Positions 7,569-23,446 of a stretch of DNA of 64,000 nt are shown in pieces (position 1 is the stretch's first letter; each line of letters begins with the position of its first letter). Source of the stretch: Bacteroidota bacterium. Its GTDB lineage: Bacteria; Bacteroidota; Ignavibacteria; UBA10030; SZUA-254. Below the pieces are notes generated by a model. It ran no database searches. It had not been told where the DNA came from and worked only from the letters and a program-made list of their open reading frames with translations. Both the position numbers and the translations under genes were made by a program. The stretch spans positions 117,462 through 181,461 of the forward strand of contig JBIOHP010000002.1 in NCBI GenBank assembly GCA_044449065.1, in the 5' to 3' direction.

Positions 7569-8597
7569 CTACCTCAACTCCGATTCCTTCCGGCTAAATC
7601 CTTTTAATATCCCCGCTACACTCCCCACAAAACAAACCAGGTGATCTACCAATAAAAATGGCGTCATCACGATCATGGCAAAAAGACCGCGCACCTGCTC
7701 GAGGTAATTAAGAAAACGGATGTTGAGAAGAATATACACGCCCATCAACGGGAGAAGATACTCATACGATATGAATCCTAACACTGCAGAAATCAGAGCG
7801 ACGAACAGCAAGACGACAAAGAGCGTTGAGATGACAAATGAAGGATAGACATTCACAAAACCCCGTTTAACCGATCCACGAGTTTCTCCTAACTGAGTTG
7901 CTAATTCGGCAAACCCCTCGCTTCGGTGATATTCATTCCGGATGAACGATGCAAGGGTATATCGTTTAAGGTGTTCAACTTCGATATCCATATTTAAGTG
8001 GATGTTGAGTTTTGCTTTTGAAAATCTCTTCCCCAGCTCAATATCGTCGTGACCATGAACGGCGAGCAGTTCGACATTGAATCCACCTAACTGCTGGAAC
8101 GCAGCGCGTTTTATCCCTGATATTGCTCCGAACAGCCAATCGATTTCCGGCAAGCTTTTAATGTATGAATACCGCACCCACAGATTTTTATACTGGCTGA
8201 CGAGATTTTCATGCCGGTGTTGCGCTGTGTATATTCCCACCACCGCATCGAGCCCTTCTTCGCTCAACGATTCAACAATGCCTAAAATAGTTTCGCGGCG
8301 AATGACAATATCGGAATCAATGAAGATGAAAATATCACCTTGTGCATGGCTCGCGCCAAAATTTCGCGCATTATTAGCGCCTTTCCCTTCACCGACTTCC
8401 AGCAGGTTTATCTCAAATTGCCGCGCAATCTCCCTGGTTGAATCGGTTGAATGATCATCAACCACGATAACTTCTATGTTCTTGTAATAGGATCGCTTGA
8501 TCGAAACCAGGCAGGTCTGAATAGTTGCCGCGCCATTCCTTACGGGAATGATCACCGAAACGAGTGGACTATATTCAGACGTGAAGCTTAACGCCAT
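7569..8597 (-). CDS. Glycosyltransferase family 2 with C-terminal TM helices
   Basis: VSVIIPVRNGAATI...VVDDHSTD GT-A N-terminus with a DxD-like motif. Hydrophobic C-terminus. Confidence 0.8.
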   Translation of the reverse strand: MALSFTSEYSPLVSVIIPVRNGAATIQTCLVSIKRSYYKNIEVIVVDDHSTDSTREIARQFEINLLEVGEGKGANNARNFGASHAQGDIFIFIDSDIVIRRETILGIVESLSEEGLDAVVGIYTAQHRHENLVSQYKNLWVRYSYIKSLPEIDWLFGAISGIKRAAFQQLGGFNVELLAVHGHDDIELGKRFSKAKLNIHLNMDIEVEHLKRYTLASFIRNEYHRSEGFAELATQLGETRGSVKRGFVNVYPSFVISTLFVVLLFVALISAVLGFISYEYLLPLMGVYILLNIRFLNYLEQVRGLFAMIVMTPFLLVDHLVCFVGSVAGILKGFSRKESELR

Positions 8598-8636
8598 CTA
8601 GTGTTCAAGAAAAATAATGTATCGGATCGGAAACCA

Positions 8637-9515
8637 TTATTTCAATAACCGAAGGAGGTATTCGCCATAATTATTCTTACTCATCGTTTCGGCAATCGTT
8701 CGCAACCTAGCGGCATCGATATAGCGCTGGGTAAAAGCGATTTCTTCTATGCAGGCGATTTTTAATCCCTGGCGTTTTTCCATCATTGCAATAAATTCAC
8801 CCGCCTCGAGGAGACTATCATACGTGCCGGTATCTAACCACGCATATCCCCTGCCGAGAAGTTCAATCTGGAGCATGGCGCGTTTTAGATACATGTTATT
8901 AACATCTGTAATCTCCAATTCTCCGCGCCCCGAGGGTTTGATCTGTTTGGCAATTTCCACTACACGATTATCGTAAAAATAGAGACCGGTCACGGCATAG
9001 TTTGATTTGGGAGATTTTGGTTTCTCTTCAATGGACGAAACACCCCCTTTGTCATCAAAGCCGATAATACCGTAGCGATGCGGATCGTTTACGTAATATC
9101 CAAAAACCGTAGCCCCGCCTTTTGTTTCAATAAAATGCACCGTTCTACGGAGGCGTTCGGTGAGTCCGTCGCCGTAAAAAATATTATCTCCGAGAATAAG
9201 ACAAACATTGTCCTTACCAATAAACCGTTCGCCGATCAGAAACGATTGAGCGAGCCCTTCGGGTTTTGGCTGCGCAGCATAACTAAAATGGAGGCCAAGG
9301 TTTGAACCATCGCCGAATAAATCCTGAAATTTTGGTAACTCATCCGGCGTCGAGATTATCAGAATATCCCGGATTTCTGCCAGCATCAGCACCGATAAAG
9401 GATAATAGATCATCGGTTTATCGTAGATCGGGAGGAGCTGTTTACATACCGAAAGTGTGAGTGGATATAACCGGGTGCCTGTTCCGCCTGCTAATATGAT
9501 GCCCTTCATTGCCAT
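8637..9515 (-). CDS. rfbA: Glucose-1-phosphate thymidylyltransferase
   Basis: [19 protein letters not shown]-terminus and overall RmlA pattern. Confidence 0.85.
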
Positions 9516-9549
9516 AGCTTGTAATTACAGGTAAATGATTGTCTGATGA

Positions 9550-10497
9550 TTAACCAAGTGTTTTGCGATGCTCAACATACCATTGGATTGTTTTTTTAAG
9601 TCCTTCTTCAAAACCGGTTTTTGATCGAAAACCGAATTCTTTTTCCGCACGCTGGGTGTCAAGGCAACGGCGCGGCTGACCGTTTGGTTTTGATTTATCC
9701 CAGGTTATCTTCCCCGCGAAACCGGTATGGCGGGCGATAATAGAAACAAGATCAACTATGGATATTTCACTTCCACTTCCAAGATTGACCGGTTCTGATG
9801 AATTGAATCGCTCGGCAGCCAGCGTGATACCATCTGCAGCATCCTCCGCGTACAAGAATTCGCGGGTTGGCGAGCCATCTCCCCAAACAACAATTTCACT
9901 ATCCCCCTTCTCCCGCGCTTCGACGCATTTTTTAATCAAAGCGGGAATCACATGCGATGACTTGGGATTGAAATTATCTCTGGGTCCGTACAGATTCACA
10001 GGCAATAAATAAATTGAATTATATCCGTATTGCTGACGGTATGCCTGCGATTGCACCAGCATCATTTTTTTTGCTAAGCCATACGGGGCATTTGTTTCTT
10101 CCGGATAGCCGTTCCAGAGGTTTTCTTCCTTAAACGGGATGGGGCAGAATTTCGGATATGCGCAGATGGTGCCAATGGCAACAAATTTGGGGATTCCCAT
10201 CAACCGGGCATGTTCAAGAAGCTGAATCCCCATGAGAGCGTTATCGTAAAAGAATGTGCCGGGGTTTTCGCGGTTGGCGCCAATGCCGCCGACTACCGAG
10301 GCGAGGTGAATCACCATATCGGCTTTTGATTTTTCATAGAGCGCTTTTATAACGCTTTGTTCACGCAAATCGTACTCTCTTTTCCGGGGAACAATGATGT
10401 TTTTGCATCCCAGCGACTGAAGTTTAGCGAGAACGTAACTGCCGAGGAAACCCCCGCCGCCGGTTACGATGACTGTTTTTGAATTCCAGAATGACAT
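9550..10497 (-). CDS. fcl: GDP-L-fucose synthase (GDP-4-keto-6-deoxymannose 3,5-epimerase/4-reductase) family
   Basis: GxxGxxG at the N-terminus, YxxxK, and close similarity to Fcl over SHVIPALI...[13 protein letters not shown]. Confidence 0.75.
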
Positions 10498-10581
10498 TAG
10501 TTCAATCCCTTAAGAGTTCGAATTCAGAATTATTGATTCGTTTAAACAATTTTTACTTTCCATGCCGTTTTCCAACAATAC

Positions 10582-11427
10582 CTATAGAGAGGTATGAACA
10601 GAACGATGCATACACTGGCTAAGGGCTGTCCGTGATTTTGATCCCCGCACAAAAAATAGATTTTTAAAAAATGAGCCGATCAATGCCGCAATAAATGAAA
10701 ATAAATATCCCAAATATTCCGCACCGACTGGTTTTCCCCAGTGTCTTACCGAAACCCGGTGTAATTCCCAAATCCATGGAGAGATAACATGGTGCATACC
10801 CTTCCCCGTTTTAGAAGATTCATACAGCCGCAAGTTGGAAAGTGCATACGGAATATACTGTAACGTATAGCGGTGCGTTAATCGAATAAAATATTCCTGG
10901 TCCATCACATACTGTAAGCTCTCATCAAGATAACCGACTTCCTGAAACACTTGTCTTCGATAAAAAAAGGACGGCTGGACATACTCGCACGACCATGTCC
11001 AGTATTTCACCAGGTTTTCATATGTCATGCCGCGGGTGAGCATAGGTTTGGTTTCTCTTCCCCCGGCATCGATTTCATATCCATCTCCATAGACAACCAT
11101 TACATGAGGATCGCTGAAGGCATCATTGACTTTTTTAAAAATATTCGGACGGTACATATCATCGGAATTTACCCAGCCGACGATCTCCCCTTTTGCCATC
11201 TTGAATCCTTTATTGAGAGCGTGCGCTTGCCCATTATCCGGCTCGGATACCCATCGCAGGTGAGGATACTTTTTAAGAATATCTATTGTGCCGTCCGTCG
11301 AACCGCCGTCGATGATGATATGCTCCACATCGGAGAAATCCTGATTCATCACACTTTGGATATTCGCCTCGATAAATGAAGCTTGATTATACGAGGGAGA
11401 TATAATTGAGAACCGGGGTGAATTCAC
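10582..11427 (-). CDS. Glycosyltransferase family 2
   Basis: FSIISPSYNQASFIEANIQSVMNQ...IIIDGGSTDGT GT-A fold N-terminus. Confidence 0.8.
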   Translation of the reverse strand: MNSPRFSIISPSYNQASFIEANIQSVMNQDFSDVEHIIIDGGSTDGTIDILKKYPHLRWVSEPDNGQAHALNKGFKMAKGEIVGWVNSDDMYRPNIFKKVNDAFSDPHVMVVYGDGYEIDAGGRETKPMLTRGMTYENLVKYWTWSCEYVQPSFFYRRQVFQEVGYLDESLQYVMDQEYFIRLTHRYTLQYIPYALSNLRLYESSKTGKGMHHVISPWIWELHRVSVRHWGKPVGAEYLGYLFSFIAALIGSFFKNLFFVRGSKSRTALSQCMHRSVHTSL

Positions 11428-11597
11428 GAAAAATTTTCAATGATCGAATAGAGTTCAAATAAAAAATGTTTGTCGCTATCTTTAGATCCTGAGTGAAAAT
11501 TGTTTTGTTTATTTAGTAGCCCGTCGTTAAACGGGCGAAATAAAGAAATTCAGCATGCCGATCAGTGATCGGCTACTACAAAAAATAACTTATTACG

Positions 11598-11622
11598 CAG
11601 GCTCTTTAAAGAGCGGTTTTTT
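11598..11622 (+). terminator. Intrinsic-terminator-like hairpin (GCTCTttaaAGAGC) followed by a T7 run; no + strand gene upstream
   Basis: GGCTCTTTAAAGAGCGG followed by TTTTTTT, read directly. Confidence 0.35.
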
Positions 11623-11739
11623 TATGGTTAATGAGGTTTAAGTATAGCAAATATCGGCTTAATTCCCAAATAATCAGGGAATATTGAACAATTCCGACTA
11701 TTAATTGATATTCCTTAGGAAGCATCGTAAGCTGAATAT

Positions 11740-13014
11740 CTACCGTTTCAACCTCATTGCCTCCTGTGAAACATCAATATATTTTTTTATGAAGATATCC
11801 AATGTAAAATGATCAAGAACTCTCTTACTCCCAGCTTTGCCGAAACGATTACGTTTTTCGGGATCATCTAACAAATTCACAATTGCATCAAAGAGTGCTT
11901 TTTTATCTCCCGACCTAACCAACCATCCGGTTTCACCGTGATTGACTTGTTCCGGGATTCCGCCCGTTTTATACGCTACCACTGCCGTTCCGCATGCCAT
12001 CGCTTCCACAACGGTACAGGGGCTATTGTCTGCCAACGTGGGGGAGACAAAAATATCCGCTGAGGAATAACACGCCCGCAAAATGTCAGGATCGCTTACC
12101 CAGCCAGTTTCTTTTCCAGCGTATTCATCCCCCAGCACCGATTTGCCCTGAAGATGTCCCACTATAAGCGTGTATATATCCGTCCGATTCTTGTACAGTA
12201 TGGAGAGCAATTCTTTAAACGTGTCAATGCCTTTGTGCTGAATAGAATTAATCCAGCTTGCGATGAAGAGAATGACTTTTTTATCCTGCGGGATTCCCAT
12301 TCGTTTGCGAGCTTGGGATTTGTCTTCCGGAAAAAATATTTTTGTGTCCACAGAACTGGGGATCACAAAACTTGGGACGTCGCGCAAAATAGAATTATTG
12401 ACATGAGATTGCAGCCACGCAGATGGCGCTACGATGACAAATTTTTTATTAGCATAAAGCATTTTCTTGAGTCCCAGTTGAAACCGGCTTCTATCGTGTT
12501 TCATTACCGGGTAAGCCGATAGCTGGGGACAATTCCCGCAGTGTTCAGCATAACGCTCACAATCAAAACTCCAGACGCACTTGCCGGTAAACGCCCACAT
12601 ATCATACAACGTCCAGACGACCGGCTTCACGTTCATCAGCGTGGGCAGCGCGAGCAGGTTGAAATAATAACCATGAATATTGTGCAAATGGATGACGTCG
12701 CTTTGCCTTACCAATTTCAAAAAGGGAATCCGCCAAGTCGACAGATAAAACAAGTATTGGGTCGAAAAAATATCGTCAAGAAGATTCCCCGCCGAATAGA
12801 GCAAATCGGGACCGGGAACGGGCTGCACAAACTCTTTCACCAGCGGATCGGCGGAATAATCAATTTTCCGGGCAAGCATTTTGCTGTTGTACCCGCGCAG
12901 GTGCAATTCTTTGCAGATTGTATAGGCGACCTTTTCCGCGCCGCCGCCGGTATTACCGGGACTTATTGCAACAATGTTTTTCATCGTCGCCGGTTCGTCT
13001 TGATTATTTTGCAT
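11740..13014 (-). CDS. Glycosyltransferase family 4 (GT-B)
   Basis: C-terminal EAMACGTAVVAYKTGGIPE motif typical of GT4. Confidence 0.8.
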   Translation of the reverse strand: MQNNQDEPATMKNIVAISPGNTGGGAEKVAYTICKELHLRGYNSKMLARKIDYSADPLVKEFVQPVPGPDLLYSAGNLLDDIFSTQYLFYLSTWRIPFLKLVRQSDVIHLHNIHGYYFNLLALPTLMNVKPVVWTLYDMWAFTGKCVWSFDCERYAEHCGNCPQLSAYPVMKHDRSRFQLGLKKMLYANKKFVIVAPSAWLQSHVNNSILRDVPSFVIPSSVDTKIFFPEDKSQARKRMGIPQDKKVILFIASWINSIQHKGIDTFKELLSILYKNRTDIYTLIVGHLQGKSVLGDEYAGKETGWVSDPDILRACYSSADIFVSPTLADNSPCTVVEAMACGTAVVAYKTGGIPEQVNHGETGWLVRSGDKKALFDAIVNLLDDPEKRNRFGKAGSKRVLDHFTLDIFIKKYIDVSQEAMRLKR

Positions 13015-14131
13015 TCAACACCCGATCGATCACCGCTTCGATTTGTTTAACATTCCGGGGAAGCGAAAATTTCTCGAAGACCCTCTTTCTTCCCGCCTCT
13101 CCCATTTGTGTTCTGCGCATTTCATTATTTGCGAGATTCCTTAGCGAATCAACCACACTTTGGATATCCATCAACGGCACTAATATTCCGCAATCGGAAG
13201 TTACTGCTTCGGGTATCCCGCCGACTGAAAACCCTATCACCGGCAAACCGGACGCCATTGCCTCCATTATCACTAACGGGAAGGGATCCTCCCGCGCGGT
13301 TGATAAATAGATATCCATCGCTGAATAATACAGTGCAACATCTTCAACATTCTCTTTCAGGATAATATCATTTTGTAATCCCAACCGTTCGATATTCCGA
13401 ATAAACTTGCAATAGAATTCCTCGTCTTCTTTTATGCCGATCACGAGAAATTTAAAATGGGGCTTGCCCTTCGTCTCTGTTTTTAGCCGGTTCGCGATAT
13501 CGATAAAAATATCGAATCCCTTCATGTTAGAAATTCTGCCGACCGTGCCTATTACGATGGAATCATCGATCCCCAGCGACTGACGAATTTCGGTCCGCCG
13601 GGAGGCATTGTACGAAAATTTTTCGGGTATGATACCGGCATGAACTACGTCGATCTTGTTAGCGTCAAATCCTTTTTCCTGAATCAGAAAATTTTTCACC
13701 GCTTCCGATACGGCGATCATTCTATCCGGAAAGGTTTTCAACAGCCAGCGTTCTTCCGGGGTTAACGATGCAAATCCCAGGGAGAGCTCATGGACGTGCA
13801 CGATGGAAGGTATTCTCAGCAACTTTGTGTAGAATAACCACTTGGCGGGCTTGATCGTATTGCAGTAGACTGCATCTGGATGGATTCTTCGGAGGAGTTG
13901 AATGCGTTTATTAACCCGTTTAATTTCACGCCAGTATTTCATCTCATCGGGATAGACCGGATCAATATAGACTTGCCCCATTTCTCTGAATTCTGATACA
14001 AGAGGACCATCCTCATCGACAATAAACACCGGATGATATTTACTCTTATCCAACAACGAGACGATGTCCTTTAATAATAGCGGGGCGCCGGAGTGTGATG
14101 CGCTGTGAGATAAGAAGAGAATTGTAGGCAT
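13004..14131 (-). CDS. Glycosyltransferase family 4 (GT-B)
   Basis: MEAMASGLPVIGFSVGGIPE motif. Overlaps the upstream GT4 gene by 11 bp. Confidence 0.8.
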   Translation of the reverse strand: MPTILFLSHSASHSGAPLLLKDIVSLLDKSKYHPVFIVDEDGPLVSEFREMGQVYIDPVYPDEMKYWREIKRVNKRIQLLRRIHPDAVYCNTIKPAKWLFYTKLLRIPSIVHVHELSLGFASLTPEERWLLKTFPDRMIAVSEAVKNFLIQEKGFDANKIDVVHAGIIPEKFSYNASRRTEIRQSLGIDDSIVIGTVGRISNMKGFDIFIDIANRLKTETKGKPHFKFLVIGIKEDEEFYCKFIRNIERLGLQNDIILKENVEDVALYYSAMDIYLSTAREDPFPLVIMEAMASGLPVIGFSVGGIPEAVTSDCGILVPLMDIQSVVDSLRNLANNEMRRTQMGEAGRKRVFEKFSLPRNVKQIEAVIDRVLNAK

Positions 14132-14368: not shown

Positions 14369-17101
14369 TCATTGCAGGGTTAATTTTATTTTGAACGATT
14401 TATCACCCTTTTGGTCAAACCAGCCGACGCCTTCCTGCAACATGCTGAATTTCACCATGTATATCCCTAAGGGCAAAAGCTTTTGATCGGAGCCGACAGG
14501 ATTTAATTTTGATGTGATTTCGATTTCTTCCCCCGGTTCAACAGCATGCGGAAGATCAACCCGCTGTTCAACTACTTCTTTACCGGGATCTTTTTCGGAG
14601 AACCACATAATACCTAACCGCACTGCGCCAATTGGCGATGGCAAGTCGGTAAGGCAGGGCCAAACCTTATTGCCGTTGTTTCGTATTCTTGCGCGATATT
14701 GCAGAGATTTTGCTGTATCCGCCATACTGCCGATATTAATAATATCAATTTGTATTGATGATCGCAGAGCCGGCAGCGCAAGCGGAGCCGCCGTAAGCGG
14801 ATGATAATGATCAAGAAGCGTAATGCCGTTTAAATAAACCCCCAGGGTCCGTGTATCACCGCTATTCGGCATTGTCTTCGCAGGAACAAAACTATCACTT
14901 TTTACCTCGATGAGCAGGTTTTTTGATATTGGGACGCCATCTAAACTTAACACTTTCGCCCAGTTTCCCTGTGCAACTGCCTGATTAAATATATCGACCT
15001 GATTCGCTTTAATATTTAAATTCGATAAGACAGGAGAGTTTTCTCCAAGTTCGATACGCACCGCTCTGGGCAGATGATTTGAATTGATAGGAATATTAAA
15101 AGAAGCATTACCATTTGTCCAACGGGATTGAGCATCCCGCGCGGCCGGTTCATTCAAACCCGATTCTTCGATGCCAAAATATTGCCGACCGCCAATTTTT
15201 ACATTGATAAAATCATCCTTCAATCCGGTTACAGTATAAATATCCACATTTCGTTCATCGAAAATGATACTATCAGGCAAGGGATTAGTCACGGTTTCAA
15301 TAAACACGCGTCGTAGAAAGAAATTATCGACGTTTTTTTCAACAATCCCGTTTAAATGATGGTTTCCCTGATAGACGACATATACCGGATTACTCACAGA
15401 TGCGCTTTCGCGGATATAATTTTCAACAACTGTCCTCCCGGGATCATTATCCAGATTCATGGGAATAACCTTTCTATCAAAGGCGAGGAAAAGCGGGGTT
15501 TCCCATGTCGCCCAGGGACCTGCGTCATCGGTAAAGATCATTTTATCCTTCGGTAAATGTTCAGCCAATGATTGAATCTGTTTATAATATCCCATTTGTT
15601 CGGTCACCATGATCTGGAAGTCGTCGGCGTCAATCATAAAAATGACAATGAAGAGGGCGGCGGCAACCGAAGGTATATGTCGCATCCAGCCCTTTAAAAA
15701 ATGATCGATGAGCCAGGAGAGCCCCAATGCGGCGAAGATGGCAAAACCGGGGATGACCACGGGGATAAATCTCCGTATCAGCCAGAAGTGATCAGGAGCG
15801 ATGGAAGGATTCCAAATAAATACACTCGAAAAACCTGACGCGATCATAAGGATAACAATTATGGTTGTATCCTTTTTCCGTCGGATCACGTCCCTGAATG
15901 AAAAGAGCCATCCAATTGGAGCCGCGAAAATCACTAATGGTGAAAGATACTTTGCAAGATTTACTAACGAATTTTCTCTAAAATCCCGGGTCAGATATCC
16001 ATAAAGATCCCACACCATTGCAAAATTCCCAAAATTCGGACGGATCCAGTATGCGTAAAGAACTAATGCCACAATAATCGCGGAGAGGATCCCAAAAATC
16101 AAGCGGTGTTCAATAAATTTTTTAATGGAAGAATTGATGGCGGGACTTTTAACAAGCAAAAGAATTGCCGAAATTATCATTAAGTAATTTATTGGACGCA
16201 ATGAAGGGAAAAGTGAAATCAGGTATGGTAGGGTCGTGAATACATGATATAATGTTCCCAAAAGGAAAATCGGAAGAAAGGTTTTGTACAGTGCGAGCCA
16301 GAGAGATTCATCTTCCTGTTCACTTACGTTTGATATTATACGATAAATAAAATGGGAGATAAAAACAAACGGAATAATCATAAAACTATCGATACGGACC
16401 CAGATCGATAGACCGAGCAAGATTCCACTCCATGCCGCTAATTGTTTCACTTTAAAACGGAGTGAATAAATAAATAGAAGTAATCCCCCCCATATACAGA
16501 GCTGGGTGAATATTTCTGTCAGAGTAACATGAGTCACCCAAATCTGGCCCGGATTCAATCCGATCACGAATACCGCGGCGAGAGCAAATTGAACAGGCAG
16601 GAACAACCGGCAGAAACCGTACAAAATGCATAGAGATAGGAGACCGACAAAGCCGTTGAACCTGATTAATCCATCAAAATCGAACGTGCAAAATGCCTGC
16701 GCCAGCCACACAGGATAGAGATGCGCAAATTGAATCGTCATGGTCGAACGAGTTTCGTATATTCCCGGGTATTGTTCATGGGAATCGGCAAATATTGAAT
16801 CCTGACTTTCTGTCCAGGGATAAGGGACATCTAACCTTCCGTGGTGTGCGATATAGATTGCGTGATTTGCGTACATACCCGTATCGCGTCCCCCCACAAT
16901 CGAATCAGCGGGATGCCAGAAATAAATAAACCCTGCAACCATGAGGATAACCATAAGAGATACATCCTCCCACGAAAATGGGGGAAAATTCCCTTGCGCT
17001 GATTTGCCGGTCAGAAATTTTGAAATGAAATATCCACCTGCGACTGCCCAGCCAAGAGCTCCAACCATCGCTCCATTATAGAGATGAAAAGCCGCAAGCA
17101 T
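14369..17101 (-). CDS. Large polytopic membrane protein (about 14 TM) with a C-terminal approximately 350-aa extracytoplasmic domain; possible GT-C-fold glycosyltransferase or polymer-modifying enzyme
   Basis: 910 aa. Hydrophobic N-terminal 560 aa, soluble beta-rich C-terminal domain. Embedded in the glycan cluster. Confidence 0.4.
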   Translation of the reverse strand: MLAAFHLYNGAMVGALGWAVAGGYFISKFLTGKSAQGNFPPFSWEDVSLMVILMVAGFIYFWHPADSIVGGRDTGMYANHAIYIAHHGRLDVPYPWTESQDSIFADSHEQYPGIYETRSTMTIQFAHLYPVWLAQAFCTFDFDGLIRFNGFVGLLSLCILYGFCRLFLPVQFALAAVFVIGLNPGQIWVTHVTLTEIFTQLCIWGGLLLFIYSLRFKVKQLAAWSGILLGLSIWVRIDSFMIIPFVFISHFIYRIISNVSEQEDESLWLALYKTFLPIFLLGTLYHVFTTLPYLISLFPSLRPINYLMIISAILLLVKSPAINSSIKKFIEHRLIFGILSAIIVALVLYAYWIRPNFGNFAMVWDLYGYLTRDFRENSLVNLAKYLSPLVIFAAPIGWLFSFRDVIRRKKDTTIIVILMIASGFSSVFIWNPSIAPDHFWLIRRFIPVVIPGFAIFAALGLSWLIDHFLKGWMRHIPSVAAALFIVIFMIDADDFQIMVTEQMGYYKQIQSLAEHLPKDKMIFTDDAGPWATWETPLFLAFDRKVIPMNLDNDPGRTVVENYIRESASVSNPVYVVYQGNHHLNGIVEKNVDNFFLRRVFIETVTNPLPDSIIFDERNVDIYTVTGLKDDFINVKIGGRQYFGIEESGLNEPAARDAQSRWTNGNASFNIPINSNHLPRAVRIELGENSPVLSNLNIKANQVDIFNQAVAQGNWAKVLSLDGVPISKNLLIEVKSDSFVPAKTMPNSGDTRTLGVYLNGITLLDHYHPLTAAPLALPALRSSIQIDIINIGSMADTAKSLQYRARIRNNGNKVWPCLTDLPSPIGAVRLGIMWFSEKDPGKEVVEQRVDLPHAVEPGEEIEITSKLNPVGSDQKLLPLGIYMVKFSMLQEGVGWFDQKGDKSFKIKLTLQ

Positions 17102-17384
17102 TGCAATCGGAACCGACCAACATGCAATACCGATCGTTGTTAAAATCGCAAAATATACAACATTGGATACTTTAAGCGAGATTGATCCCCCTCCTGTATA
17201 TTGAAATAAAATATAGCCGGTACAAGGAAGGGCGAGCCAGATACCGCTGGATAGAACATGAGTTACGATATTAATAGATTACCTCTGGATGCATCTATAG
17301 ATAAATATTTTCTTGATCTATCTTCCCGTTACATGTATATAACTATCTGTAAAGGAATAAATTAAACATACCATGAATAATAAA

Positions 17385-18149
17385 TCATCTTCGGGAAACT
17401 GCTGGATCCGAATTTTCACGAATCCTCCGAAGATTTTCGACTTCGTTCATGAACTGGTGATTCTCAAATATTTTTGTTTCAACATTCCGCGGCTCGATCA
17501 GTCTGGTAAATAACGAAAACGTATCGCTTAAAATGCCCGGTTCCCATTGTATAATTTCCTGAGAAACGCAGTGTAATCCAACCTTTGCGCAGGTTTCACG
17601 AAACAATTTTGCGGACATCGTCGTGTCCCGCCAGTGGTGGCTCGCCGCAGTCATGAATCCTGAAGCTTCATCGCGATACGATCCCATATTTGAATGGTGG
17701 ATAAAACCATATCCGCCCGGTTTCATTTTCTTTGCGAGTTGGGTTAAGTAGGTAACAAATACTTCGTCATTAGCGTGGACAAGAGAATCCCAGCTAAAAA
17801 CAAAATCTATCGAATTATCGTCCAGAAATTTCAGGGACTTGCCGTCATTGACAAAATACCGAATATGATTGCAAGAAGAAAACCTTTTCTTGCATGCGTC
17901 GATGCATTTCTCAGCAAGATCGACTACGGTTAATTTCTTGCACATTTTCAATAAATGCTTTGTGCATCTTCCATAACCCGGAGCAATCTCCAGGATATGA
18001 TTTGATTCAGCTACCGCCCGGATTCGCGGGTAAATGGTACCATACCACATAGTATCGGAATCACCCCACGGTTTTGACCATTCGTCACCACCTTCGGACC
18101 AATCATAGGATGACCATTGCTTTAAATTTTCCTTTATAGTTGGCATCAC
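17385..18149 (-). CDS. Class I SAM-dependent methyltransferase
   Basis: ILEIAPGYGRCT (motif I, GxGxG-like) followed by an acidic residue after a beta strand (VVDLAE). Confidence 0.7.
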   Translation of the reverse strand: MMPTIKENLKQWSSYDWSEGGDEWSKPWGDSDTMWYGTIYPRIRAVAESNHILEIAPGYGRCTKHLLKMCKKLTVVDLAEKCIDACKKRFSSCNHIRYFVNDGKSLKFLDDNSIDFVFSWDSLVHANDEVFVTYLTQLAKKMKPGGYGFIHHSNMGSYRDEASGFMTAASHHWRDTTMSAKLFRETCAKVGLHCVSQEIIQWEPGILSDTFSLFTRLIEPRNVETKIFENHQFMNEVENLRRIRENSDPAVSRR

Positions 18150-18229
18150 AGACTTCTAAAAATTTATTCCTTACATCGTTTTCTAACTTGGGATTCTGCT
18201 CTATTCCGGTTTACTGGGTCTTGTTCATG

Positions 18230-21076
18230 TTACGAGGAGATGAATTTAAATCCATTTTGTCCGAGTTGTGCGCTCGTATAATTATCGGAAAGAAGATACT
18301 CCAAACATTCCGCCGCTTCGGCAGGGTTAGTATAATAGAGTCCGCATTTTGACTGCACGCAAAGATTTCTTAACTGTGCATTCCCTTCAGGAACGAGCAG
18401 GGGAATTTTGTGCAACAGTCCCCGTAAAACCGCTTGCAGAGTGCACTGCGGATCAACTACCCAATAAATTTTAGCATGGAGCATTTGATCGTTGTCCATC
18501 CAGTCAGCCATGACAAAGTTGACCGGTTTTGAATATTTTTTTGTAAACAGGTCGAGCGCGTCCATGGCGTCTTTTGAGAAACCCGAACCCGCGCATACCA
18601 CAAGCGGCATAGCCGCAGAGTGCGCTCCGTTCGTTCCCGGCTCGTACTCCGCCAGTATCTTACGCGTTTGACTTTCAAACGTATTAGTTTGGATAATGCG
18701 GTATGCATTCTCCCCAAAAGTTTTTAGATGATCAGGATGGTCGATGAGGCGGTCCATCGCTCCGGCAAGCTGGCGCGCGTTCCCGGCGTCAAAGAGGTAT
18801 CCCGTTTTGCCGTCGGTCACTATTTCCGGTATCCCGCCGATACGGGAGGCGATCACCGGCGTACGCGCCGCCATCGCCTCGGTGATTGTGACCGGCTGAT
18901 TTTCGGGCCAAATGGAAGCAAGAATCAGCACGTCTGTCTGCCGGAAAATTTCTTCGATATTATTATTTTCGACCATACCGAAGAAATTCACCGCGGTTTC
19001 GAATCCCATTTCCTTCACCTGCTTCTTATACGATTCCAATCGGTCGCCGGTCCCGACAATATTTATCTTCACACGATCTGGGTGTTTCAGAAACGGCAGC
19101 GCTTCAAAAATGACATGCACGCCTTTATGCCTGCCAAGATAACCGATAAATGTGAAACGGATGAATCCGTTTGCCGGTGTTTTTACCAGAGAGGCATACC
19201 TTTCAACATCGATCCCATACGAAATCACCTTTATCTTATCATTTTGGAATCCCGCTTTCCGGTACGCACAAGCCAGGTAATTACTTGGAGGAAGAAAAAG
19301 ATCGGATTCGCCTAAGGTCAATGAGAGATAATCTTTCCGCAGCCGTATGGGAACCGGCGCACCGTTATCCGAAGAGCTGTGTGACAAACAATCGGTGCAA
19401 TTCGCAAAGTTATCGCAAATTGTTCCATCCGGTTTGAGCAGCGTATTATTCAGACAAAATCCCCAGTGATCGTGCAGCGTGACAACGGTTTTGATATGTC
19501 TCTTCCCCGCCGCGTGGATCAAACCGGCGGAAAGCCCGGTGATATTATGAAAATGGACGACGTCCGGCGCGAACGAATCCAGCGTTTCGGCAAACCGCGC
19601 TTCCACCTCTTTATGGACAAAATTGAAATACTCCGAGCTGTAATCCTTCGGATGGAGAGCAACCCGCACCACGGGCAAGCCCTCGTACTCGTCCCTCCAG
19701 ACGGAGTGCCGTTCCTGCGTTTCCGTGGGATATCCCGCGAAGATGAGAACGTCATTCCCCTTTTTCTTGATCTCCTTTGCCTGGTAGTGAGCGATTAACT
19801 CCGCTCCGCCGATAAAATTGGGAGGGTAAGCATTTGCGCAGAAGATGATTTTCTTTTTCCCGTACGTCGCCTTGAGAACATCTTCAGCTTTTTTCCCTAT
19901 GGTATTCCACGTATATTCGCGCAGAACTTTTTCCCTGCCCACTCTCCCCATCCGTTCAAGAGATTTTGCGTCCTTCAATGCATATAATAATTTATTCTTT
20001 AAATCAAGGACGTCTCCGTACCGTGAAAGGATACCCTCCTTCCCGATTATATTCGGCATGGCTCCCTCGGTGGTTCCAAGAACCGGCGTGCCGCAAATCC
20101 ACGCTTCCAGAAACACGATGCCGAACGCCTCATATCTTGATGGGAGCGCCATCAGATCGCTGATGGAGAGAAGGTTCACTTTATCCTGATGGGACAACAG
20201 ACCGAGATCGATGATCGACGCCTTATCCGCCGAAGAAAGTTTTGCGTAGTATTCTTTGAACCACTCAAATGTGGGACCGACGAGGAAAACCTTTACGGGG
20301 TACTCGGGATAAATTTGCCGCATGGCTTCTATCAGCGTATCCACGCCCTTATCGGGCATTTTTCTGCCGAGAAACGTGATGATTTTTTCCGAGGGTTTTA
20401 ATCCATAGTCCCGCGCGTAACGCGCTCTGAATTTATCAAGCTCAATAGGTTGATAATCCTCCGGGTGAATGCCGCATCCGGCAACGAAAATCTTATCCGG
20501 GGAAACTCCCTTTTTCGCTATATAGTCTTTCTCAAACTCCGAATCGGCAATAACAGCGTCGCTTTTCTTCATCAGCCAATAATTAGAGCGTCGCTCGTAA
20601 TGCGGATGACCGGGGTGAAAATGGGGCACGAACGCGATTTTTTTCTTAAAATATTTCGCCAGAATCATCGCGAAAAAATTATGAGGGTACGGCGCCGTAT
20701 TAAGAAATACAACGTCTGTCGCCTTGATATATCTCCACATCTTGCCGTACATTTCCACCGAGTGGGGACCGTAAAAATAGACTTTAAATATTTTATCGAG
20801 GATAATCCGGTACACAAGATGATAAAAATGGTGGATCGGCAGGGAGCGGTCAAACCGGCGCACCTTCACTCCATGATCGAATTCAAATTTTCCGAACGCT
20901 ATCGTACGGTCGCGGTCGGCGGGATCGCGCCAGAATTCTTCCTCTTTGTTCACGTTCATGGTGAGAACTGTTACATCGTGTCCGTGCCCCGCGAGATAAC
21001 GGCAAACTTCCTGGCACCATGTTTCCGAACCTCCTACTGCAGGCGGGTAACGCTGGATGATAGTCAGGATTTTCAA
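18230..21076 (-). CDS. Dual-domain glycosyltransferase (two tandem GT4 modules plus a C-terminal extra domain), WbdA-like polymerising mannosyl/glycosyltransferase
   Basis: 948 aa. MKILTIIQRYPPAVGGSE (GT4 start) and a second KIIFCANAYPPNFIGGAE module. EAWICGTPVL and EAMAARTPVIASRIGGIPE are GT4 C-terminal motifs. Confidence 0.7.
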   Translation of the reverse strand: MKILTIIQRYPPAVGGSETWCQEVCRYLAGHGHDVTVLTMNVNKEEEFWRDPADRDRTIAFGKFEFDHGVKVRRFDRSLPIHHFYHLVYRIILDKIFKVYFYGPHSVEMYGKMWRYIKATDVVFLNTAPYPHNFFAMILAKYFKKKIAFVPHFHPGHPHYERRSNYWLMKKSDAVIADSEFEKDYIAKKGVSPDKIFVAGCGIHPEDYQPIELDKFRARYARDYGLKPSEKIITFLGRKMPDKGVDTLIEAMRQIYPEYPVKVFLVGPTFEWFKEYYAKLSSADKASIIDLGLLSHQDKVNLLSISDLMALPSRYEAFGIVFLEAWICGTPVLGTTEGAMPNIIGKEGILSRYGDVLDLKNKLLYALKDAKSLERMGRVGREKVLREYTWNTIGKKAEDVLKATYGKKKIIFCANAYPPNFIGGAELIAHYQAKEIKKKGNDVLIFAGYPTETQERHSVWRDEYEGLPVVRVALHPKDYSSEYFNFVHKEVEARFAETLDSFAPDVVHFHNITGLSAGLIHAAGKRHIKTVVTLHDHWGFCLNNTLLKPDGTICDNFANCTDCLSHSSSDNGAPVPIRLRKDYLSLTLGESDLFLPPSNYLACAYRKAGFQNDKIKVISYGIDVERYASLVKTPANGFIRFTFIGYLGRHKGVHVIFEALPFLKHPDRVKINIVGTGDRLESYKKQVKEMGFETAVNFFGMVENNNIEEIFRQTDVLILASIWPENQPVTITEAMAARTPVIASRIGGIPEIVTDGKTGYLFDAGNARQLAGAMDRLIDHPDHLKTFGENAYRIIQTNTFESQTRKILAEYEPGTNGAHSAAMPLVVCAGSGFSKDAMDALDLFTKKYSKPVNFVMADWMDNDQMLHAKIYWVVDPQCTLQAVLRGLLHKIPLLVPEGNAQLRNLCVQSKCGLYYTNPAEAAECLEYLLSDNYTSAQLGQNGFKFISS

Positions 21077-21567
21077 CCGGCAAGCTCCTGCGCCAGCATG
21101 AGCCGCTCCAAAGATTTATCGCCTCCGTGATACAGCGACGCATTGATGTAATAGACGCCTTTTTCGCTCACGGTTCCCCGCCAGAACTCCTCCGGCGAGC
21201 ATTGCGCGTCGTCGATGACGATGCATGCCTCTCTGTTCCAATCGTAGGCAACCGTTATGGTGAGCGGCTGCATCTTCGGCAGGTAGAGCGATTTGGAGAA
21301 ATAGGCAAAGTGACCTTCGGGATGGACCGGGTGTTCTTTCCGGTAAATATCGATTAAGATCTTTACATAAAAATCCTGCGGTGAATTATTTGCCAGGATG
21401 AGGCGGTATTCCGATATCTGATTAAGACGCACGGTCGGTTTATCGCACGAAAAGATCGAAATGCTTGCGGGCACGGAATCGACCTCGCGCGCGTAACGGA
21501 TCAAATCGCGAGTGCGTGAAATAACTTTGATAAAATCCGACGCGACGGCTTTAACTTTGTGTATCAT
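21073..21567 (-). CDS. Hypothetical protein
   Basis: 164 aa ORF, 4-bp overlap with the downstream gene. No motif recognised. Confidence 0.4.
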   Translation of the reverse strand: MIHKVKAVASDFIKVISRTRDLIRYAREVDSVPASISIFSCDKPTVRLNQISEYRLILANNSPQDFYVKILIDIYRKEHPVHPEGHFAYFSKSLYLPKMQPLTITVAYDWNREACIVIDDAQCSPEEFWRGTVSEKGVYYINASLYHGGDKSLERLMLAQELAG

Positions 21568-21589
21568 ACTACTTCACAACCGGTCTGGA

Positions 21590-23446
21590 TTATCCTTTCC
21601 ATGCGATGACGGCGTAGTCCTGCGGTCCGTAAAAATGATCGTTGAACCGGTTGGACGTTTCCGTGTTCTCCGAAAGGCGCTGCGCAATATCAACCGGATG
21701 CAGTTTGAGTATCTCCACGTTGGAGAACCCTCGCGCTTCCGCCATAAATTTTACCATTTCGGACGGCAGGGGATTGCGGTGTGTGGGATCCATATAGAAC
21801 ATATTGCTCCCCACGATGACATTTTCCGGATTCGGCGTTTCAAAGATCATGACGCCACCCGGTTTTAAGACACGGAGAGCTTCGTCAAAAACTTTGATCC
21901 ACACCGCGAAGGGCAGATGTTCTATAATATGGAATCCCGTGAGCGCCCCCAAACTTTCGTCTTTAATTTGCGTCAGATAGGCGAGGATATCGCCCTGTTC
22001 CGCTTTTAAACCGAGAACGCGGCAATGCTCTACCATTGCGCCGCTGAGATCAAGCCCGAACGCTACCAATCCTTCGTCTTTCAGAACTTCCAGCCATTCG
22101 CCTCTTCCGCATCCGACATCGAGGATGGGTTGTTTTCCCGAACCGGCGCCCGCCTTCCGCACCATCGGAAGGTAAATTTTCACACGGTCTTTGATCTCGT
22201 GCCGCGAGCCGCGGTATTTATTTTCAAACGCGAGATACAATTCTTCGTTCATGGCGTCAAGCTCATGGGCAAGCACCTCAAGCTGATCCTGGTTAAAGGG
22301 ATGCGGCAATCGCCGGCGGGCTTCATCTAAAATCACCGATAACCGCCGCTCATGACCAACCATCATCGTCATCAATTTTGTGAGATGTTCCTGAAGATGA
22401 GTAACTTCCGGTCGTAAGCCCGATACCGTCTCATCCAATTTGATATTGCGATCAATGATGCTGCCCTGAGCATCTCTCACCGCGTCGAGACGACGTTCCA
22501 TATTCGATAAAACGTCAACCCTTCCTGTTAACCCGTTTATTCTCTGCTCAAACGACGTTAACCCCCCGATATTGCTTCGTATGTCGTTCACGGTACGCTC
22601 AAGCCGCCATACCGTTTCAAATTGTTCGTGAATTTGCCTGAGCTGGATATTGACAGAATTCAGATTGTCCGAATGCACTTTGACGTCGGTTCCCTGAAGC
22701 GATAATCGGTCGAAGACCGTTCTGGTTTCTTCCTCTAATTTAGATCGTAAGTTTGAGATTTTCTCATTCTGTTCCCTGAGGATTTGCTCGAGATGGGGAA
22801 TAATTTCCACACGATTTTGAACGTACGAGATATGTCTTTCCAAATCAGGAATGGAATTGAGTTTATGTGTGTTTTCACGAATTTGCCGGTCGATGCGATC
22901 TTCGATGGATGGCAGCGCCCGCAATGCTTCTGTGAGATCCTTCATGTCCGCGCGAACGGACGCGAGTTCTGATTCGAAGCCGCGCATGTCGTCCAACCGT
23001 GAACGCAGGAGTATCAGGTTATCCTGCAACGGATGCAAGCTTTCATTTAGACGGTGCATCACTTCCAGTATGGACGTATTAAACGCCTGCTGCGGTTTGG
23101 TGACGACCTGGGCGAAGTACAGAAATATCTTTCCAAAGATAGTCGCCATGCCCCGTACAATTCCGCTTTTGTAATGATTCATTTCGGGTTTTGTACTCCA
23201 GACATATTTGCGGCGCTCTGCTTCTGCAACGCGGGATGTAATCTTATCCCAATCGATGAGCGCGATTTCAGGAGTTGGACGGGGAGTTATTCCCCCCGAT
23301 GCCTGGGGAAAGGGCGGGCGTGCGTCCTTTACATCGGTTGATTTCGCGGGTAATTTCGATCCGTTATCCCCTAATTTTGCTCGTAACCGATTCATGATTT
23401 GTTCGATATCGATATCCTGAGCGGGGTCTTTCATGCTCGTACTCAT
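21590..23446 (-). CDS. Coiled-coil protein with a C-terminal SAM-dependent methyltransferase domain (candidate O-polysaccharide chain terminator / molecular ruler, WbdD-like but with reversed domain order)
   Basis: 618 aa. Residues about 130-400 are long heptad-rich helices (LRSRLDDMRGFESELASVRADMKDLTEALRAL...). C-terminus has ILDVGCGRGEWL methyltransferase motif I, acidic motif II (GLDLS) and motif post-I. Confidence 0.6.
   Translation of the reverse strand: MSTSMKDPAQDIDIEQIMNRLRAKLGDNGSKLPAKSTDVKDARPPFPQASGGITPRPTPEIALIDWDKITSRVAEAERRKYVWSTKPEMNHYKSGIVRGMATIFGKIFLYFAQVVTKPQQAFNTSILEVMHRLNESLHPLQDNLILLRSRLDDMRGFESELASVRADMKDLTEALRALPSIEDRIDRQIRENTHKLNSIPDLERHISYVQNRVEIIPHLEQILREQNEKISNLRSKLEEETRTVFDRLSLQGTDVKVHSDNLNSVNIQLRQIHEQFETVWRLERTVNDIRSNIGGLTSFEQRINGLTGRVDVLSNMERRLDAVRDAQGSIIDRNIKLDETVSGLRPEVTHLQEHLTKLMTMMVGHERRLSVILDEARRRLPHPFNQDQLEVLAHELDAMNEELYLAFENKYRGSRHEIKDRVKIYLPMVRKAGAGSGKQPILDVGCGRGEWLEVLKDEGLVAFGLDLSGAMVEHCRVLGLKAEQGDILAYLTQIKDESLGALTGFHIIEHLPFAVWIKVFDEALRVLKPGGVMIFETPNPENVIVGSNMFYMDPTHRNPLPSEMVKFMAEARGFSNVEILKLHPVDIAQRLSENTETSNRFNDHFYGPQDYAVIAWKG

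Follow-up and report, generated by a model that had tools for sequence, protein, structure and literature searches.

Coiled-coil rulers are the best-understood bacterial means of measuring template-free polymers. In WbdD of E. coli O9a and K. pneumoniae O3 (PDB 4AZS, 4AX8, 4UW0), a methyltransferase-kinase is combined with a coiled-coil molecular ruler. In the characterised coiled-coil terminators, the catalytic module is N-terminal, and the coiled coil and the membrane- or polymerase-binding region are C-terminal (PMC11231755, PMC3482155, PMC13168486). WbdD of E. coli O8 and K. pneumoniae O5 adds a methyl-only cap and has no kinase. K. pneumoniae O7 ORF6, O4 ORF7 and O12 WbbB show that modules for termination, coiled coil and polymerisation can be distributed over polypeptides in different ways (PMC11231755). 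The Wzt_C carbohydrate-binding module of the exporter is treated as a companion of chain-terminating enzymes (PMC11127046, PMC11231755).

Here we analyse a 618-aa protein encoded in a 64,000-nucleotide stretch of DNA from a Bacteroidota bacterium, the whole of which we call the window. The order of its parts is the opposite one: an N-terminal module (N-module, 1-122), a coiled coil (113-379) and then a methyltransferase (439-616). The preliminary description had proposed that the domain order is reversed relative to WbdD, and this agrees with what is published on the known terminators (PMC11231755, PMC3482155, PMC13168486). We favour, with some reserve, the reading that it terminates the chains of a surface glycan exported by an ABC transporter, and acts as a ruler for them, with inverted polarity. 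The preliminary description had seen in it a candidate chain-length ruler or terminator, and our results support this candidate.

Domain anatomy of the 618-aa protein

The gene and the parts of its product lie as follows.

21590..23446, minus strand: whole gene of the terminator candidate, 618 aa, encoding N-module, coiled coil, junction and C-terminal methyltransferase (ATG-to-stop ORF and translation)
23081..23446, minus strand: conserved N-terminal module, aa 1-122 (alignments A1 and A2, AlphaFold2 secondary structure)
23093..23167, minus strand: amphipathic, cationic, aromatic-rich helix, aa 94-118 (hydrophobic moment in aligned members)
22310..23110, minus strand: coiled-coil stalk, aa 113-379, ~265 residues (Fourier period, register, AlphaFold2)
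22154..22291, minus strand: conserved junction helices, aa 386-431 (conservation in A1; within the 3DLI match)
21599..22132, minus strand: class-I SAM-dependent methyltransferase domain, aa 439-616 (Pfam, PDB 3DLI, Foldseek, pLDDT, invariant columns)

The identical protein in NCBI, P0001 in our alignments, is titled 'MAG: methyltransferase domain-containing protein [Bacteroidota bacterium]'. The sole domain that Pfam finds in it is a class-I SAM methyltransferase at aa 439-578 (Methyltransf_23/11/25, E 3e-15 to 1e-12), and Pfam detects no kinase domain. The methyltransferase domain, which contains the motif ILDVGCGRGEWL, is intact: the SAM motif reads D443-x-G445-x-G447-x-G449, residues H506, E509, H510, D553 and H556 are conserved, and every family-invariant residue of the A1 columns is kept. 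In the AlphaFold2 model (mean pLDDT 77.8), the Rossmann domain at 441-616 has a pLDDT above 90 and is preceded by the junction helices at 386-431, which carry the family motif FExxYRGSRxxIKxRxxxYLP with R412 and G413 invariant in A1. The ORF, Pfam and AlphaFold2 together bear out the 618-aa protein that had been described beforehand, with a long helix and a C-terminal class-I methyltransferase without a kinase.

The nearest solved relative is PDB 3DLI, a functionally uncharacterised SAM-dependent methyltransferase of Archaeoglobus fulgidus from structural genomics. It matches the junction and methyltransferase (aa 398-617) with E 2e-31 and 32% identity, and by Foldseek with E 6e-19 and TM 0.86. 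The window protein fits this 3DLI-type class (junction motif FExxFRGSRExIK plus methyltransferase) in sequence and fold; in contrast, 3DLI itself is a stand-alone 240-aa enzyme from which the N-module and coiled coil are absent. WbdD was not among the phmmer PDB matches of the window protein at E <= 0.01, nor among the top 50 Foldseek matches, and as judged by sequence the methyltransferase is 3DLI-like, with undetectable homology to the methyltransferase of WbdD.

The N-module begins with a helix (14-26) and a disordered linker rich in P, S and T (27-60), followed by a helix at 66-78 and an amphipathic helix that leads to the invariant Q119 and N123 (AlphaFold2; A1 and A2). In 22 of 22 aligned family members, the helix that corresponds to aa 94-118 has a hydrophobic moment of 0.39-0.69, with 3-6 Lys/Arg and 0-3 Asp/Glu each. 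We propose that this helix may be an in-plane membrane anchor and/or a polymerase-docking surface; WbdD has a membrane-associated amphipathic helix at its anchor end (PMC11231755), and the helix of the window protein is analogous to it in position and character.

The coiled-coil stalk

The hydrophobicity of aa 113-378 gives a single dominant Fourier peak with a period of 3.46 residues and a power of 257, as compared to a maximum power of 66 +/- 14 in shuffled sequences, and none of 300 shuffles matched it. In the same analysis the peak is not seen in the N-terminal 94 aa or in the methyltransferase. When the register is assigned, the core is hydrophobic at 41 of 44 'a' and 32 of 37 'd' positions, there are regular +3 stammers, of which some are spaced by 17 residues, and an invariant Gln occupies a core 'a' position where the stalk begins. 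AlphaFold2 predicts a nearly continuous helix from aa 95 to 379 with short breaks near 177, 198, 214 and 251-258. A coiled coil, the absence of which would have spoken against the earlier proposal, is strongly indicated by the Fourier analysis, the register and AlphaFold2, with a periodicity far above chance. If fully extended, the stalk would be ~39 nm long (an arithmetic estimate at 0.148 nm per residue).

Across the family, no region is less conserved or varies more in length than the stalk, which has 49-292 aa in A1 and down to ~31 aa among the genome loci. Recent in-frame DNA tandem repeats extend it in some relatives, as 93 bp x 3.8 in locus L001 and 21 bp x 10 in locus L088; within the window gene itself we found no DNA tandem repeats.

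The glycan cluster in the window

The 618-aa gene is the first of an ABC-transporter (Wzm/Wzt) glycan cluster, and the 164-aa ORF and then the double-GT4 gene lie downstream of it. The other genes of the cluster, in order from the 618-aa gene, are these.

21073..21567, minus strand: 164-aa protein; starts 22 nt past the stop of the 618-aa gene and has a 4-nt overlap with the GT4 start
18230..21076, minus strand: 948-aa protein with two GT4 modules and a C-terminal ~130-aa domain (Pfam Glyco_transf_4 and Glycos_transf_1 twice each); candidate polymerase
17385..18149, minus strand: second class-I methyltransferase, stand-alone, 254 aa (Pfam Methyltransf_25/11)
14369..17101, minus strand: 910-aa polytopic membrane protein with a C-terminal beta-rich domain (translation; NCBIfam)
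7569..14131, minus strand: rest of the glycan cluster, GT4 to GT2 (Pfam/NCBIfam), made up of the next six entries
13004-14131, minus strand: GT4 (Pfam/NCBIfam)
11740-13014, minus strand: GT4 (Pfam/NCBIfam)
10582-11427, minus strand: GT2 (Pfam/NCBIfam)
9550-10497, minus strand: GDP-fucose-synthase-like epimerase/reductase (Pfam/NCBIfam)
8637-9515, minus strand: RmlA (Pfam/NCBIfam)
7569-8597, minus strand: GT2 with C-terminal transmembrane helices (Pfam/NCBIfam)
6816-7559, plus strand: Wzt, nucleotide-binding domain alone, 247 aa (Pfam ABC_tran)
6024-6815, plus strand: Wzm, ABC-2 permease (Pfam ABC2_membrane)

The cluster contains four GT4 modules and two GT2 genes together with Wzm and Wzt. The 910-aa protein has a weak match to an LA_3751/LA_3752 putative glycosyltransferase model (NF047440, E 8e-9, below cutoff). 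The preliminary description had called the double-GT4 neighbour 'WbdA-like'; its position beyond the 164-aa ORF and its two-GT4 architecture stand, and the likeness holds for that architecture only.

Pfam finds no Wzt_C carbohydrate-binding module in the Wzt of the window, so what canonically couples capping to export is missing here. This absence counts against a terminator, as does the fact that the methyltransferase is not related to WbdD by sequence. The cluster's second methyltransferase (17385..18149) could supply any methylation, which also speaks against a terminator.

Relatives and their genomic context

The architecture is not unique to the window; the family that shares it is large and widespread. 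In an exhaustive representative search with the A2 profile, we found the N-module in at least 828 representative protein clusters, nearly always at residues 1-120, and relatives are present in at least 511 species genomes. The window protein matches the A2 profile over residues 5-139 with E 4e-29, although A2 includes the window sequence, which makes this score in part circular; the protein has all of the N-module features, namely the 'EIxVDELM'-type helix, the amphipathic cationic helix and the invariant Q...N (Q119 and N123). A word-indexed search with the N-module profile returned fragments of the same family and nothing else. Of the longer N-module members that we scanned, 52/58 end in a class-I methyltransferase.

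These genes are linked to glycan genes in many phyla. A glycosyltransferase lies within 10 kb in 67 of 69 species-genome loci; in 52 loci the very next gene is a glycosyltransferase, and 59 have one no more than two genes downstream. Wzm or Wzt is present in 45/69 loci (within two genes upstream in 31/69), and 32/69 have a GT4 with 700 aa or more no farther than two genes away. Among the 35 Wzt proteins that adjoin relatives, 33 carry a Wzt_C carbohydrate-binding module; L006 and L088, like the window, lack it. Loci L003, L004, L006, L088 and L090 individually have the same glycan context. Orthologous polymerases are paired with stalks of differing length, about 75 aa in L008, about 128 aa in L024 and about 220-265 aa in the window.

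The closest full-length relative, P0003 (47% identity), shares its nadE-rsmI neighbours with the window gene. We found no glycosyltransferase within 10 kb of it, and what comes after it is an integrase-like gene, then a type I restriction system and a TIR gene. A locus without an adjoining glycosyltransferase is an observation against the terminator reading.

Some relatives have the methyltransferase first (L073, L075, L078, L085, L086), and in these we found no significant heptad signal for a C-terminal coiled coil. Upstream of some cyanobacterial relatives there are methyltransferase genes of 611-627 aa that we considered as a second coiled-coil terminator and rejected, since each is made of two methyltransferases and a C-terminal beta-sandwich. 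We likewise rejected the P. aeruginosa CPA methyltransferases PA5457 and PA5459 as examples of the same architecture, since they lack membrane- and glycosyltransferase-interacting domains (PMC3560663).

The 164-aa protein next to the terminator candidate

The 164-aa protein has an N-terminal helix and a predicted all-beta domain, and it has no Pfam or PDB match. Its single-sequence AlphaFold2 model (pLDDT 40.7) was too poor for a structure search. A word-indexed search found the protein itself alone, as if it were an orphan, but local phmmer of the fetched loci revealed three homologues, which hold the same position in L008, L024 and L026. In the same three loci, full-length orthologues (953-972 aa) of the 948-aa GT4 protein adjoin N-module methyltransferases, so that the set of terminator candidate, 164-aa protein and double GT4 is kept in four distant lineages. 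The small ORF that follows the L006 homologue is unrelated to the 164-aa protein. We considered the 164-aa protein as a free-standing carbohydrate-binding module that stands in for that of Wzt; this is not supported, because L008 has a 403-aa Wzt as well as a 164-aa homologue and because there is no Pfam or PDB match.

Comparison with WbdD and other terminators

The window protein resembles WbdD of O9a and O3 in that both belong to a wzm/wzt cluster with an adjacent multi-module GT4 polymerase and in that the predicted logic, catalytic head distal and anchor proximal, would be the same. The two differ in that the window protein has an N-terminal anchor module, a C-terminal catalytic domain and no kinase, and in that its Wzt lacks the carbohydrate-binding module. 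WbdD itself forms a trimer (PMC3482155). O8 and O5 WbdD, with its methyl-only cap, shares with the window protein the absence of a kinase; its catalytic site, which we compared by its published description, is N-terminal to the coiled-coil ruler (PMC11231755). In O7 ORF6, O4 ORF7 and O12 WbbB the terminating module is also N-terminal to the coiled coil, the polarity opposite to that of the window protein; in O7 and O12 glycosyltransferase modules are fused C-terminally, whereas the polymerase of the window is a separate protein. The window protein adds one more arrangement to these shuffled terminator, coiled-coil and polymerase modules.

A cyanobacterial relative, P0284 (GCA_018447775.1), joins the N-module and a heptad-repeat coiled coil to a C-terminal WbdD-type methyltransferase-kinase and is in effect a reversed WbdD. 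It shares with the window protein the N-module (profile E 1.4e-20), the order of domains and the gene context of wzm, wzt (246 aa), terminator and GT4s, in the locus order wzm-wzt-P0284-GT4-GT4. In contrast to the 3DLI-type methyltransferase of the window protein, the head of P0284 is truly WbdD-homologous (E ~1e-42 to WbdD crystal structures). The same scaffold is used by a WbdD-type catalytic module.

A proposed mechanism and its alternatives

In the mechanism that we propose, the N-module would dock on the membrane or on the polymerase and so keep the protein at the membrane's cytoplasmic face, beside the polymerising double-GT4 enzyme. The amphipathic cationic helix would be the anchor, perhaps with a contribution from the 164-aa protein. 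The coiled coil of ~265 residues would hold the C-terminal methyltransferase at a distance from the membrane; it is probably a parallel homo-oligomer that is extended rather than folded into a hairpin. A chain would be O-methylated at its non-reducing end, a terminal and not an internal target, once it had grown far enough to reach the methyltransferase, and shorter chains would not. This methylation would block elongation, and the modal chain length would then be biased by how long the stalk is, as expected of a ruler.

It is rather unlikely, in our view, that the protein is instead a scaffold-tethered decorating methyltransferase that acts on internal residues or on every repeat unit, with a stalk and N-module that just oligomerise it and tether it to the glycosyltransferase complex. 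Chain length would then come from competition between polymerisation and Wzm/Wzt export, as where Wzt has no carbohydrate-binding module, and the Wzt of the window does lack it, like that of the export-limited K. pneumoniae O2a model (PMC3560663). The clusters of relatives often contain several more methyltransferases, so methylated sugars may be in the repeat unit, and 3DLI itself is functionally uncharacterised. However, Wzt_C is nearly always present in the Wzt proteins that adjoin relatives, the same scaffold bears a WbdD-type terminator module in P0284, and repeat units are more likely to be methylated by the stand-alone methyltransferases of those clusters; it is also hard to see why a decorating enzyme would need a stalk of such variable length, expanded by repeats. 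A role outside glycan synthesis, for example as a chromosome-partition, chemotaxis or small-molecule methyltransferase that is merely beside the cluster, is effectively refuted by the context statistics and is extremely improbable. It could draw on weak matches to SMC and Rad50 coiled-coil models, which are compositional, and on the absence of adjacent glycosyltransferases at P0003; against it stand the glycosyltransferases near 67 of 69 loci, which also contradict the possibility that homologues are consistently found outside glycan clusters, those within two genes downstream in 59 loci, and the conserved set with the 164-aa protein and double GT4.

The stalk itself could also be arranged differently. 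In the AlphaFold2 monomer the sole low-confidence break is aa 251-258, which divides the stalk into near-equal arms of ~120 residues each (about 130-250 and 259-379), so an antiparallel hairpin is also possible, and the discontinuities in the register cluster at 245-260 as well. If the helices folded back as a hairpin or bundle, the methyltransferase would be beside the N-module at the membrane and the protein would be a terminator without a ruler, with length set by the ratio of terminator to polymerase. We regard this as improbable, since the ~31-49-residue stalks of some members could hardly make a useful hairpin, contiguous tandem-repeat expansion would be easier in a parallel in-register oligomer, and the invariant Gln at a core 'a' position would fit a parallel homo-oligomer with a polar layer.

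A possible second class of rulers

A broader reading, which we offer tentatively as one that may well prove wrong, is that the N-module and coiled coil form a second, polarity-inverted class of rulers: a portable unit for docking on membrane and polymerase, found in many phyla, with a stalk tuned by tandem repeats and with interchangeable terminating heads. These heads would be the 3DLI-type methyltransferase, the WbdD-type methyltransferase-kinase and, in the same tentative scheme, an added sulfotransferase or FkbM methyltransferase. In the window, the system would operate with a Wzt that lacks the carbohydrate-binding module, and capping and export would be uncoupled or would be coupled via a new partner, such as the conserved 164-aa beta-rich protein. 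If this is true, what matters is geometry (head distal, anchor proximal) and not the direction of the chain, and the N-module would allow terminators to be recognised by their N-terminus in groups with unstudied O-antigens, among them cyanobacteria, Acidobacteriota, Nitrospirota and Bacteroidota. Natural variation would provide ready-made tests of the ruler model, in stalks of ~30 to 290 residues or more, in repeat expansions and in orthologous polymerases that work with different stalks.

In the literature that we searched we found no experimental study of any family member, and public annotation at present calls the proteins just 'class I SAM-dependent methyltransferase'. At JGI, many homologues are named 'O-antigen chain-terminating methyltransferase', a label that fits the enzyme class of O8 and O5 WbdD.

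Domain architecture of the 618-aa protein

The ORF at 21590-23446 (minus strand) starts with ATG and encodes a 618-aa product that combines an N-terminal module, a periodic central stalk and an intact methyltransferase domain. An identical NCBI entry comes from a Bacteroidota MAG ('methyltransferase domain-containing protein'). Pfam assigns a single domain, a class-I SAM methyltransferase (aa 439-578), and no kinase, in agreement with the preliminary description. Three independent measures identify the central region as a coiled coil, the continuous heptad-like helix that had been proposed to precede the methyltransferase. In a sliding heptad score, core residues gather at a/d positions over approximately aa 113-378. 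For aa 113-378, the hydrophobicity spectrum shows a lone dominant peak at 3.46 residues with a power of 257. In shuffled sequences the strongest peak has a power of 66 ± 14, and 0/300 shuffles matched the observed value; the 3.46-residue peak is absent from the first 94 aa and from the methyltransferase. In the register assignment, 41/44 'a' and 32/37 'd' positions are hydrophobic, and three-residue stammers recur regularly, some with a spacing of 17 residues.

Structure prediction, which the preliminary description had suggested as a check, gives a long helix followed by a C-terminal Rossmann domain. In the AlphaFold2 model (57-sequence alignment as input; mean pLDDT 77.8), the N-terminal part contains helices 14-26 and 66-78, a near-unbroken helix spans 95-379, interrupted briefly near 177, 198, 214 and 251-258, and junction helices (386-431) lead to the confidently modelled Rossmann domain (441-616). 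All 22 aligned members share the amphipathic, cationic and aromatic-rich character of the third helix of the N-terminal module (aa 94-118), which would suit anchoring in the plane of the membrane or docking to a protein.

A widespread family defined by the N-terminal module

A homologue search with the 618-aa protein gave 263 matches among 8000 candidates scored. Many homologues carry the JGI name 'O-antigen chain-terminating methyltransferase'; plasmid records carry only the generic 'class I SAM-dependent methyltransferase', and we found no experimental study of the family in the searchable literature. Aligning 57 homologues distinguished four regions. The N-module (approximately 100-120 aa) consists of an 'EIxVDELM' helix, a second helix ending 'AE' and a hydrophobic helix running to an invariant Q...N (Q119 and N123 in the window protein). 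The middle region is very weakly conserved and 49 to 292 aa long, the junction is strongly conserved (...ERRLxxLLEEARxRLP...FEDxFRGSREDIKxRLxVYLP), and the methyltransferase has 25 invariant residues. Junction and methyltransferase match PDB 3DLI (E 2e-31, TM 0.86), an uncharacterised A. fulgidus enzyme whose likeness is confined to these two regions. WbdD, the E. coli O9a terminator, is not among the PDB sequence matches nor the top 50 fold matches.

An exhaustive search with the N-module profile alone returned 828 representative proteins, 402 of them at E ≤ 1e-10, with the match almost always at residues 1-120. A class-I methyltransferase lies at the C-terminal end in 52 of 58 scanned N-module proteins of at least 300 aa. 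One relative (P0226) has an additional sulfotransferase N-terminal to the N-module, and another (P0045) has, by precomputed Pfam annotation, FkbM-type methyltransferase (PF05050) and DUF4214 domains besides the class-I methyltransferase. When one genome per species was scanned, at least 511 genomes proved to have a relative, spread over Cyanobacteria, Acidobacteriota, Nitrospirota, many Proteobacteria, Actinomycetota, Saccharibacteria, Planctomycetota and others.

DUF4214 is also inserted within the N-terminal region of Acidobacteriota homologues (e.g. L004 10001-11875), and separate DUF4214 proteins occur in the same clusters as relatives, one on a Pseudomonas plasmid (compare L090 1952-4718). 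Numerous N-module matches are only 100-250 aa long (P0143, P0147, P0163, P0170, P0177), some on long contigs or complete genomes; these could represent either free-standing N-module proteins or genes that a frameshift has interrupted in the repeat-rich stalk.

The glycan cluster and a candidate 164-aa partner protein

The 618-aa gene heads a minus-strand glycan cluster and is preceded by the housekeeping genes nadE and rsmI. Downstream of it are, in order:

21073-21567, minus strand: 164-aa ORF, beginning 22 nt past the 618-aa gene stop codon
minus strand: 948-aa protein with two GT4 modules, its start overlapping the 164-aa ORF stop by 4 nt
minus strand: 254-aa methyltransferase
14369-17101, minus strand: 910-aa polytopic membrane protein
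minus strand: two GT4 genes and one GT2 gene
minus strand: GDP-fucose-synthase-like enzyme and RmlA
7569-8597, minus strand: membrane-anchored GT2 with C-terminal transmembrane helices

Wzm and a 247-aa Wzt (Wzt at 6816-7559) are encoded on the plus strand, convergent to this cluster. As first described, only the 164-aa ORF separates the 618-aa gene from the double-GT4 gene. The pathway is ABC-transporter-dependent, and by Pfam the 247-aa Wzt is a nucleotide-binding domain without the Wzt_C carbohydrate-binding module.

In the 164-aa protein, an N-terminal helix is accompanied by a predicted all-beta domain, and neither Pfam nor PDB gives a match. The protein is a member of a small, uncharacterised family with invariant Y54, Y75, H86, W110 and W129-R130-G131. 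Full-length orthologues of the 948-aa double GT4 are found in Nitrospirae (L008), Candidatus Magnetocorallium (L024) and Candidatus Binatia (L026); each locus also holds a 164-aa homologue (L008 10839-11345, L024 12547-13053, L026 ~11017-11511), which a word-indexed protein search did not return, in the same gene order as the window. Across four distant lineages, this gene always lies between an N-module coiled-coil methyltransferase and an approximately 950-aa double GT4.

Relatives are linked to glycan genes and to the Wzt carbohydrate-binding module

Of 80 loci of relatives that we fetched and in which we called ORFs, 69 yielded the target ORF and entered the statistics; neighbours were assigned to classes by iterative profiles seeded with the Wzm, Wzt, GT4 and GT2 proteins of the window. 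The preliminary description had considered that homologues might consistently lie outside glycan clusters, and we found a glycosyltransferase in 67/69 loci. The next downstream gene is a glycosyltransferase in 52/69 loci, and one lies within two genes downstream in 59/69; a GT4 of at least 700 aa occupies these positions in 32/69. Wzm or Wzt lies within two genes upstream in 31/69 loci and anywhere in 45/69. In the subset with a full N-module (16 loci), a glycosyltransferase follows within two genes in 15 loci, and Wzm or Wzt is present in 12. Wzt_C, which the literature regards as the companion of chain-terminating enzymes (PMC11127046, PMC11231755), is present in 33/35 Wzt proteins adjoining relatives (Pfam). 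Precomputed annotations give these gene orders:

L004: Wzm, Wzt with Wzt_C, homologue, GT4s
L003: homologue, then 777-aa double GT4
L006: Wzm, Wzt, homologue
Pseudomonas plasmid: ABC ATPase, homologue, glycosyltransferase, GDP-mannose dehydratase

The sole discordant locus (L001) is that of the closest full-length relative, P0003. The nadE-rsmI neighbours are retained, and the place of the glycan cluster (12019-21869) is taken by an integrase-like gene, small ORFs, a type I restriction-modification system (HsdM/HsdS) and a TIR-domain gene, which looks like island insertion or cluster loss.

Comparison with known chain terminators

The window protein is best filed functionally with coiled-coil chain terminators. 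It is outside the WbdD protein family: tests of domain order, of the kinase and of methyltransferase homology all came out negative. The catalytic module of WbdD is N-terminal to the coiled coil, whereas in the window protein a conserved non-catalytic module is N-terminal and the methyltransferase C-terminal, so the reversed order proposed earlier stands. The WbdD-like order is found in WbdD O9a/O3 and O8/O5, WbbB O12, ORF7 O4, ORF6 O7 and the O101/O162 methyltransferase (PMC11231755, PMC13168486). No characterised terminator in the accessible literature has a C-terminal catalytic module, although the 2019 census (Mann et al.) may already contain this domain order.

The N-module/coiled-coil scaffold is common to the window family and a WbdD-type head. 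In a 651-aa cyanobacterial protein (P0284; L088 10001-11956, GCA_018447775.1), the N-module is followed by approximately ten perfect heptads, (EQRIDST)n, and a C-terminal methyltransferase-kinase that matches E. coli O9a WbdD crystal structures (E ~1e-42, WbdD residues 14-372). Judged by these matches, P0284 amounts to a reversed WbdD. Its locus reads wzm - wzt (246 aa) - P0284 - GT4 - GT4 - epimerase - GT4 - GT4. This widespread family of inverted polarity extends the established terminator/ruler model and does not overturn it.

Stalk length and a possible ruler

The stalk is the most variable part of the family, from approximately 31 aa in genome loci to more than 600 aa in the relative P0113. 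Stalks paired with an orthologous double GT4 measure ~75 aa (L008) and ~128 aa (L024), as compared to ~220-265 aa in the window protein. Recent in-frame DNA tandem repeats encode 31-aa units at L001 10577-10932 (93 bp x 3.8 copies, 84% identity) and exact heptads at L088 10377-10587 (21 bp x 10 copies, 90% identity), which suggests that stalk length evolves through repeat expansion and contraction; the window gene contains no DNA tandem repeats. The family provides a usable N-terminal signature, and these natural length variants lend themselves to testing the ruler idea.

By analogy, the anatomy of the window protein can be mapped onto the WbdD model with inverted polarity. The N-module would dock the protein at the membrane or a protein partner through the aa 94-118 helix, and the stalk, as a parallel extended oligomer of ~39 nm (266 residues x 0.148 nm), would keep the methyltransferase at a distance from the polymerase on the membrane. 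The methyltransferase would then methylate the chain terminus, and only long chains would be capped, giving a ruler effect. The stalk may instead fold as a hairpin, because the low-confidence AlphaFold2 break at aa 251-258 divides it into two arms of ~120 residues; the very short stalks of some relatives, the contiguous repeat expansion in others and an invariant core Gln argue indirectly for the parallel rod. Because Wzt lacks the carbohydrate-binding module in the window, L006 and L088 alike (it is also short in L006 and L088), export in these three may not depend on the cap. The window cluster holds a second methyltransferase besides the putative capping enzyme.

Other genes in the window

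Two large polytopic membrane proteins without a Pfam match (4067-5920, plus strand; 14369-17101, minus strand) accompany the GT2 at 7569-8597 (minus strand), and one of the two weakly matches LA_3751-type putative glycosyltransferases. By analogy, this set resembles polyprenyl-phosphate-sugar synthase and GT-C systems, which modify glycans outside the cytoplasm (PMC11127046). The C-terminal ~120 aa of the 910-aa protein form a beta-rich domain with a final '...LxQEGVxWFD' signature. A domain of similar appearance, judged by eye only, ends the 611-627-aa double methyltransferases beside cyanobacterial relatives:

L010, 7770-9653
L014, 7770-9617
L019, 7719-9557
L023, 7685-9520

Three tandem paralogous genes of 128-129 aa at 750-1136, 1251-1640 and 1723-2112 (minus strand) have a common N-terminus (MGQQQLLLIILGVIIV...). 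With a hydrophobic N-terminal helix, their products resemble subunits of pilin type or of another surface filament.
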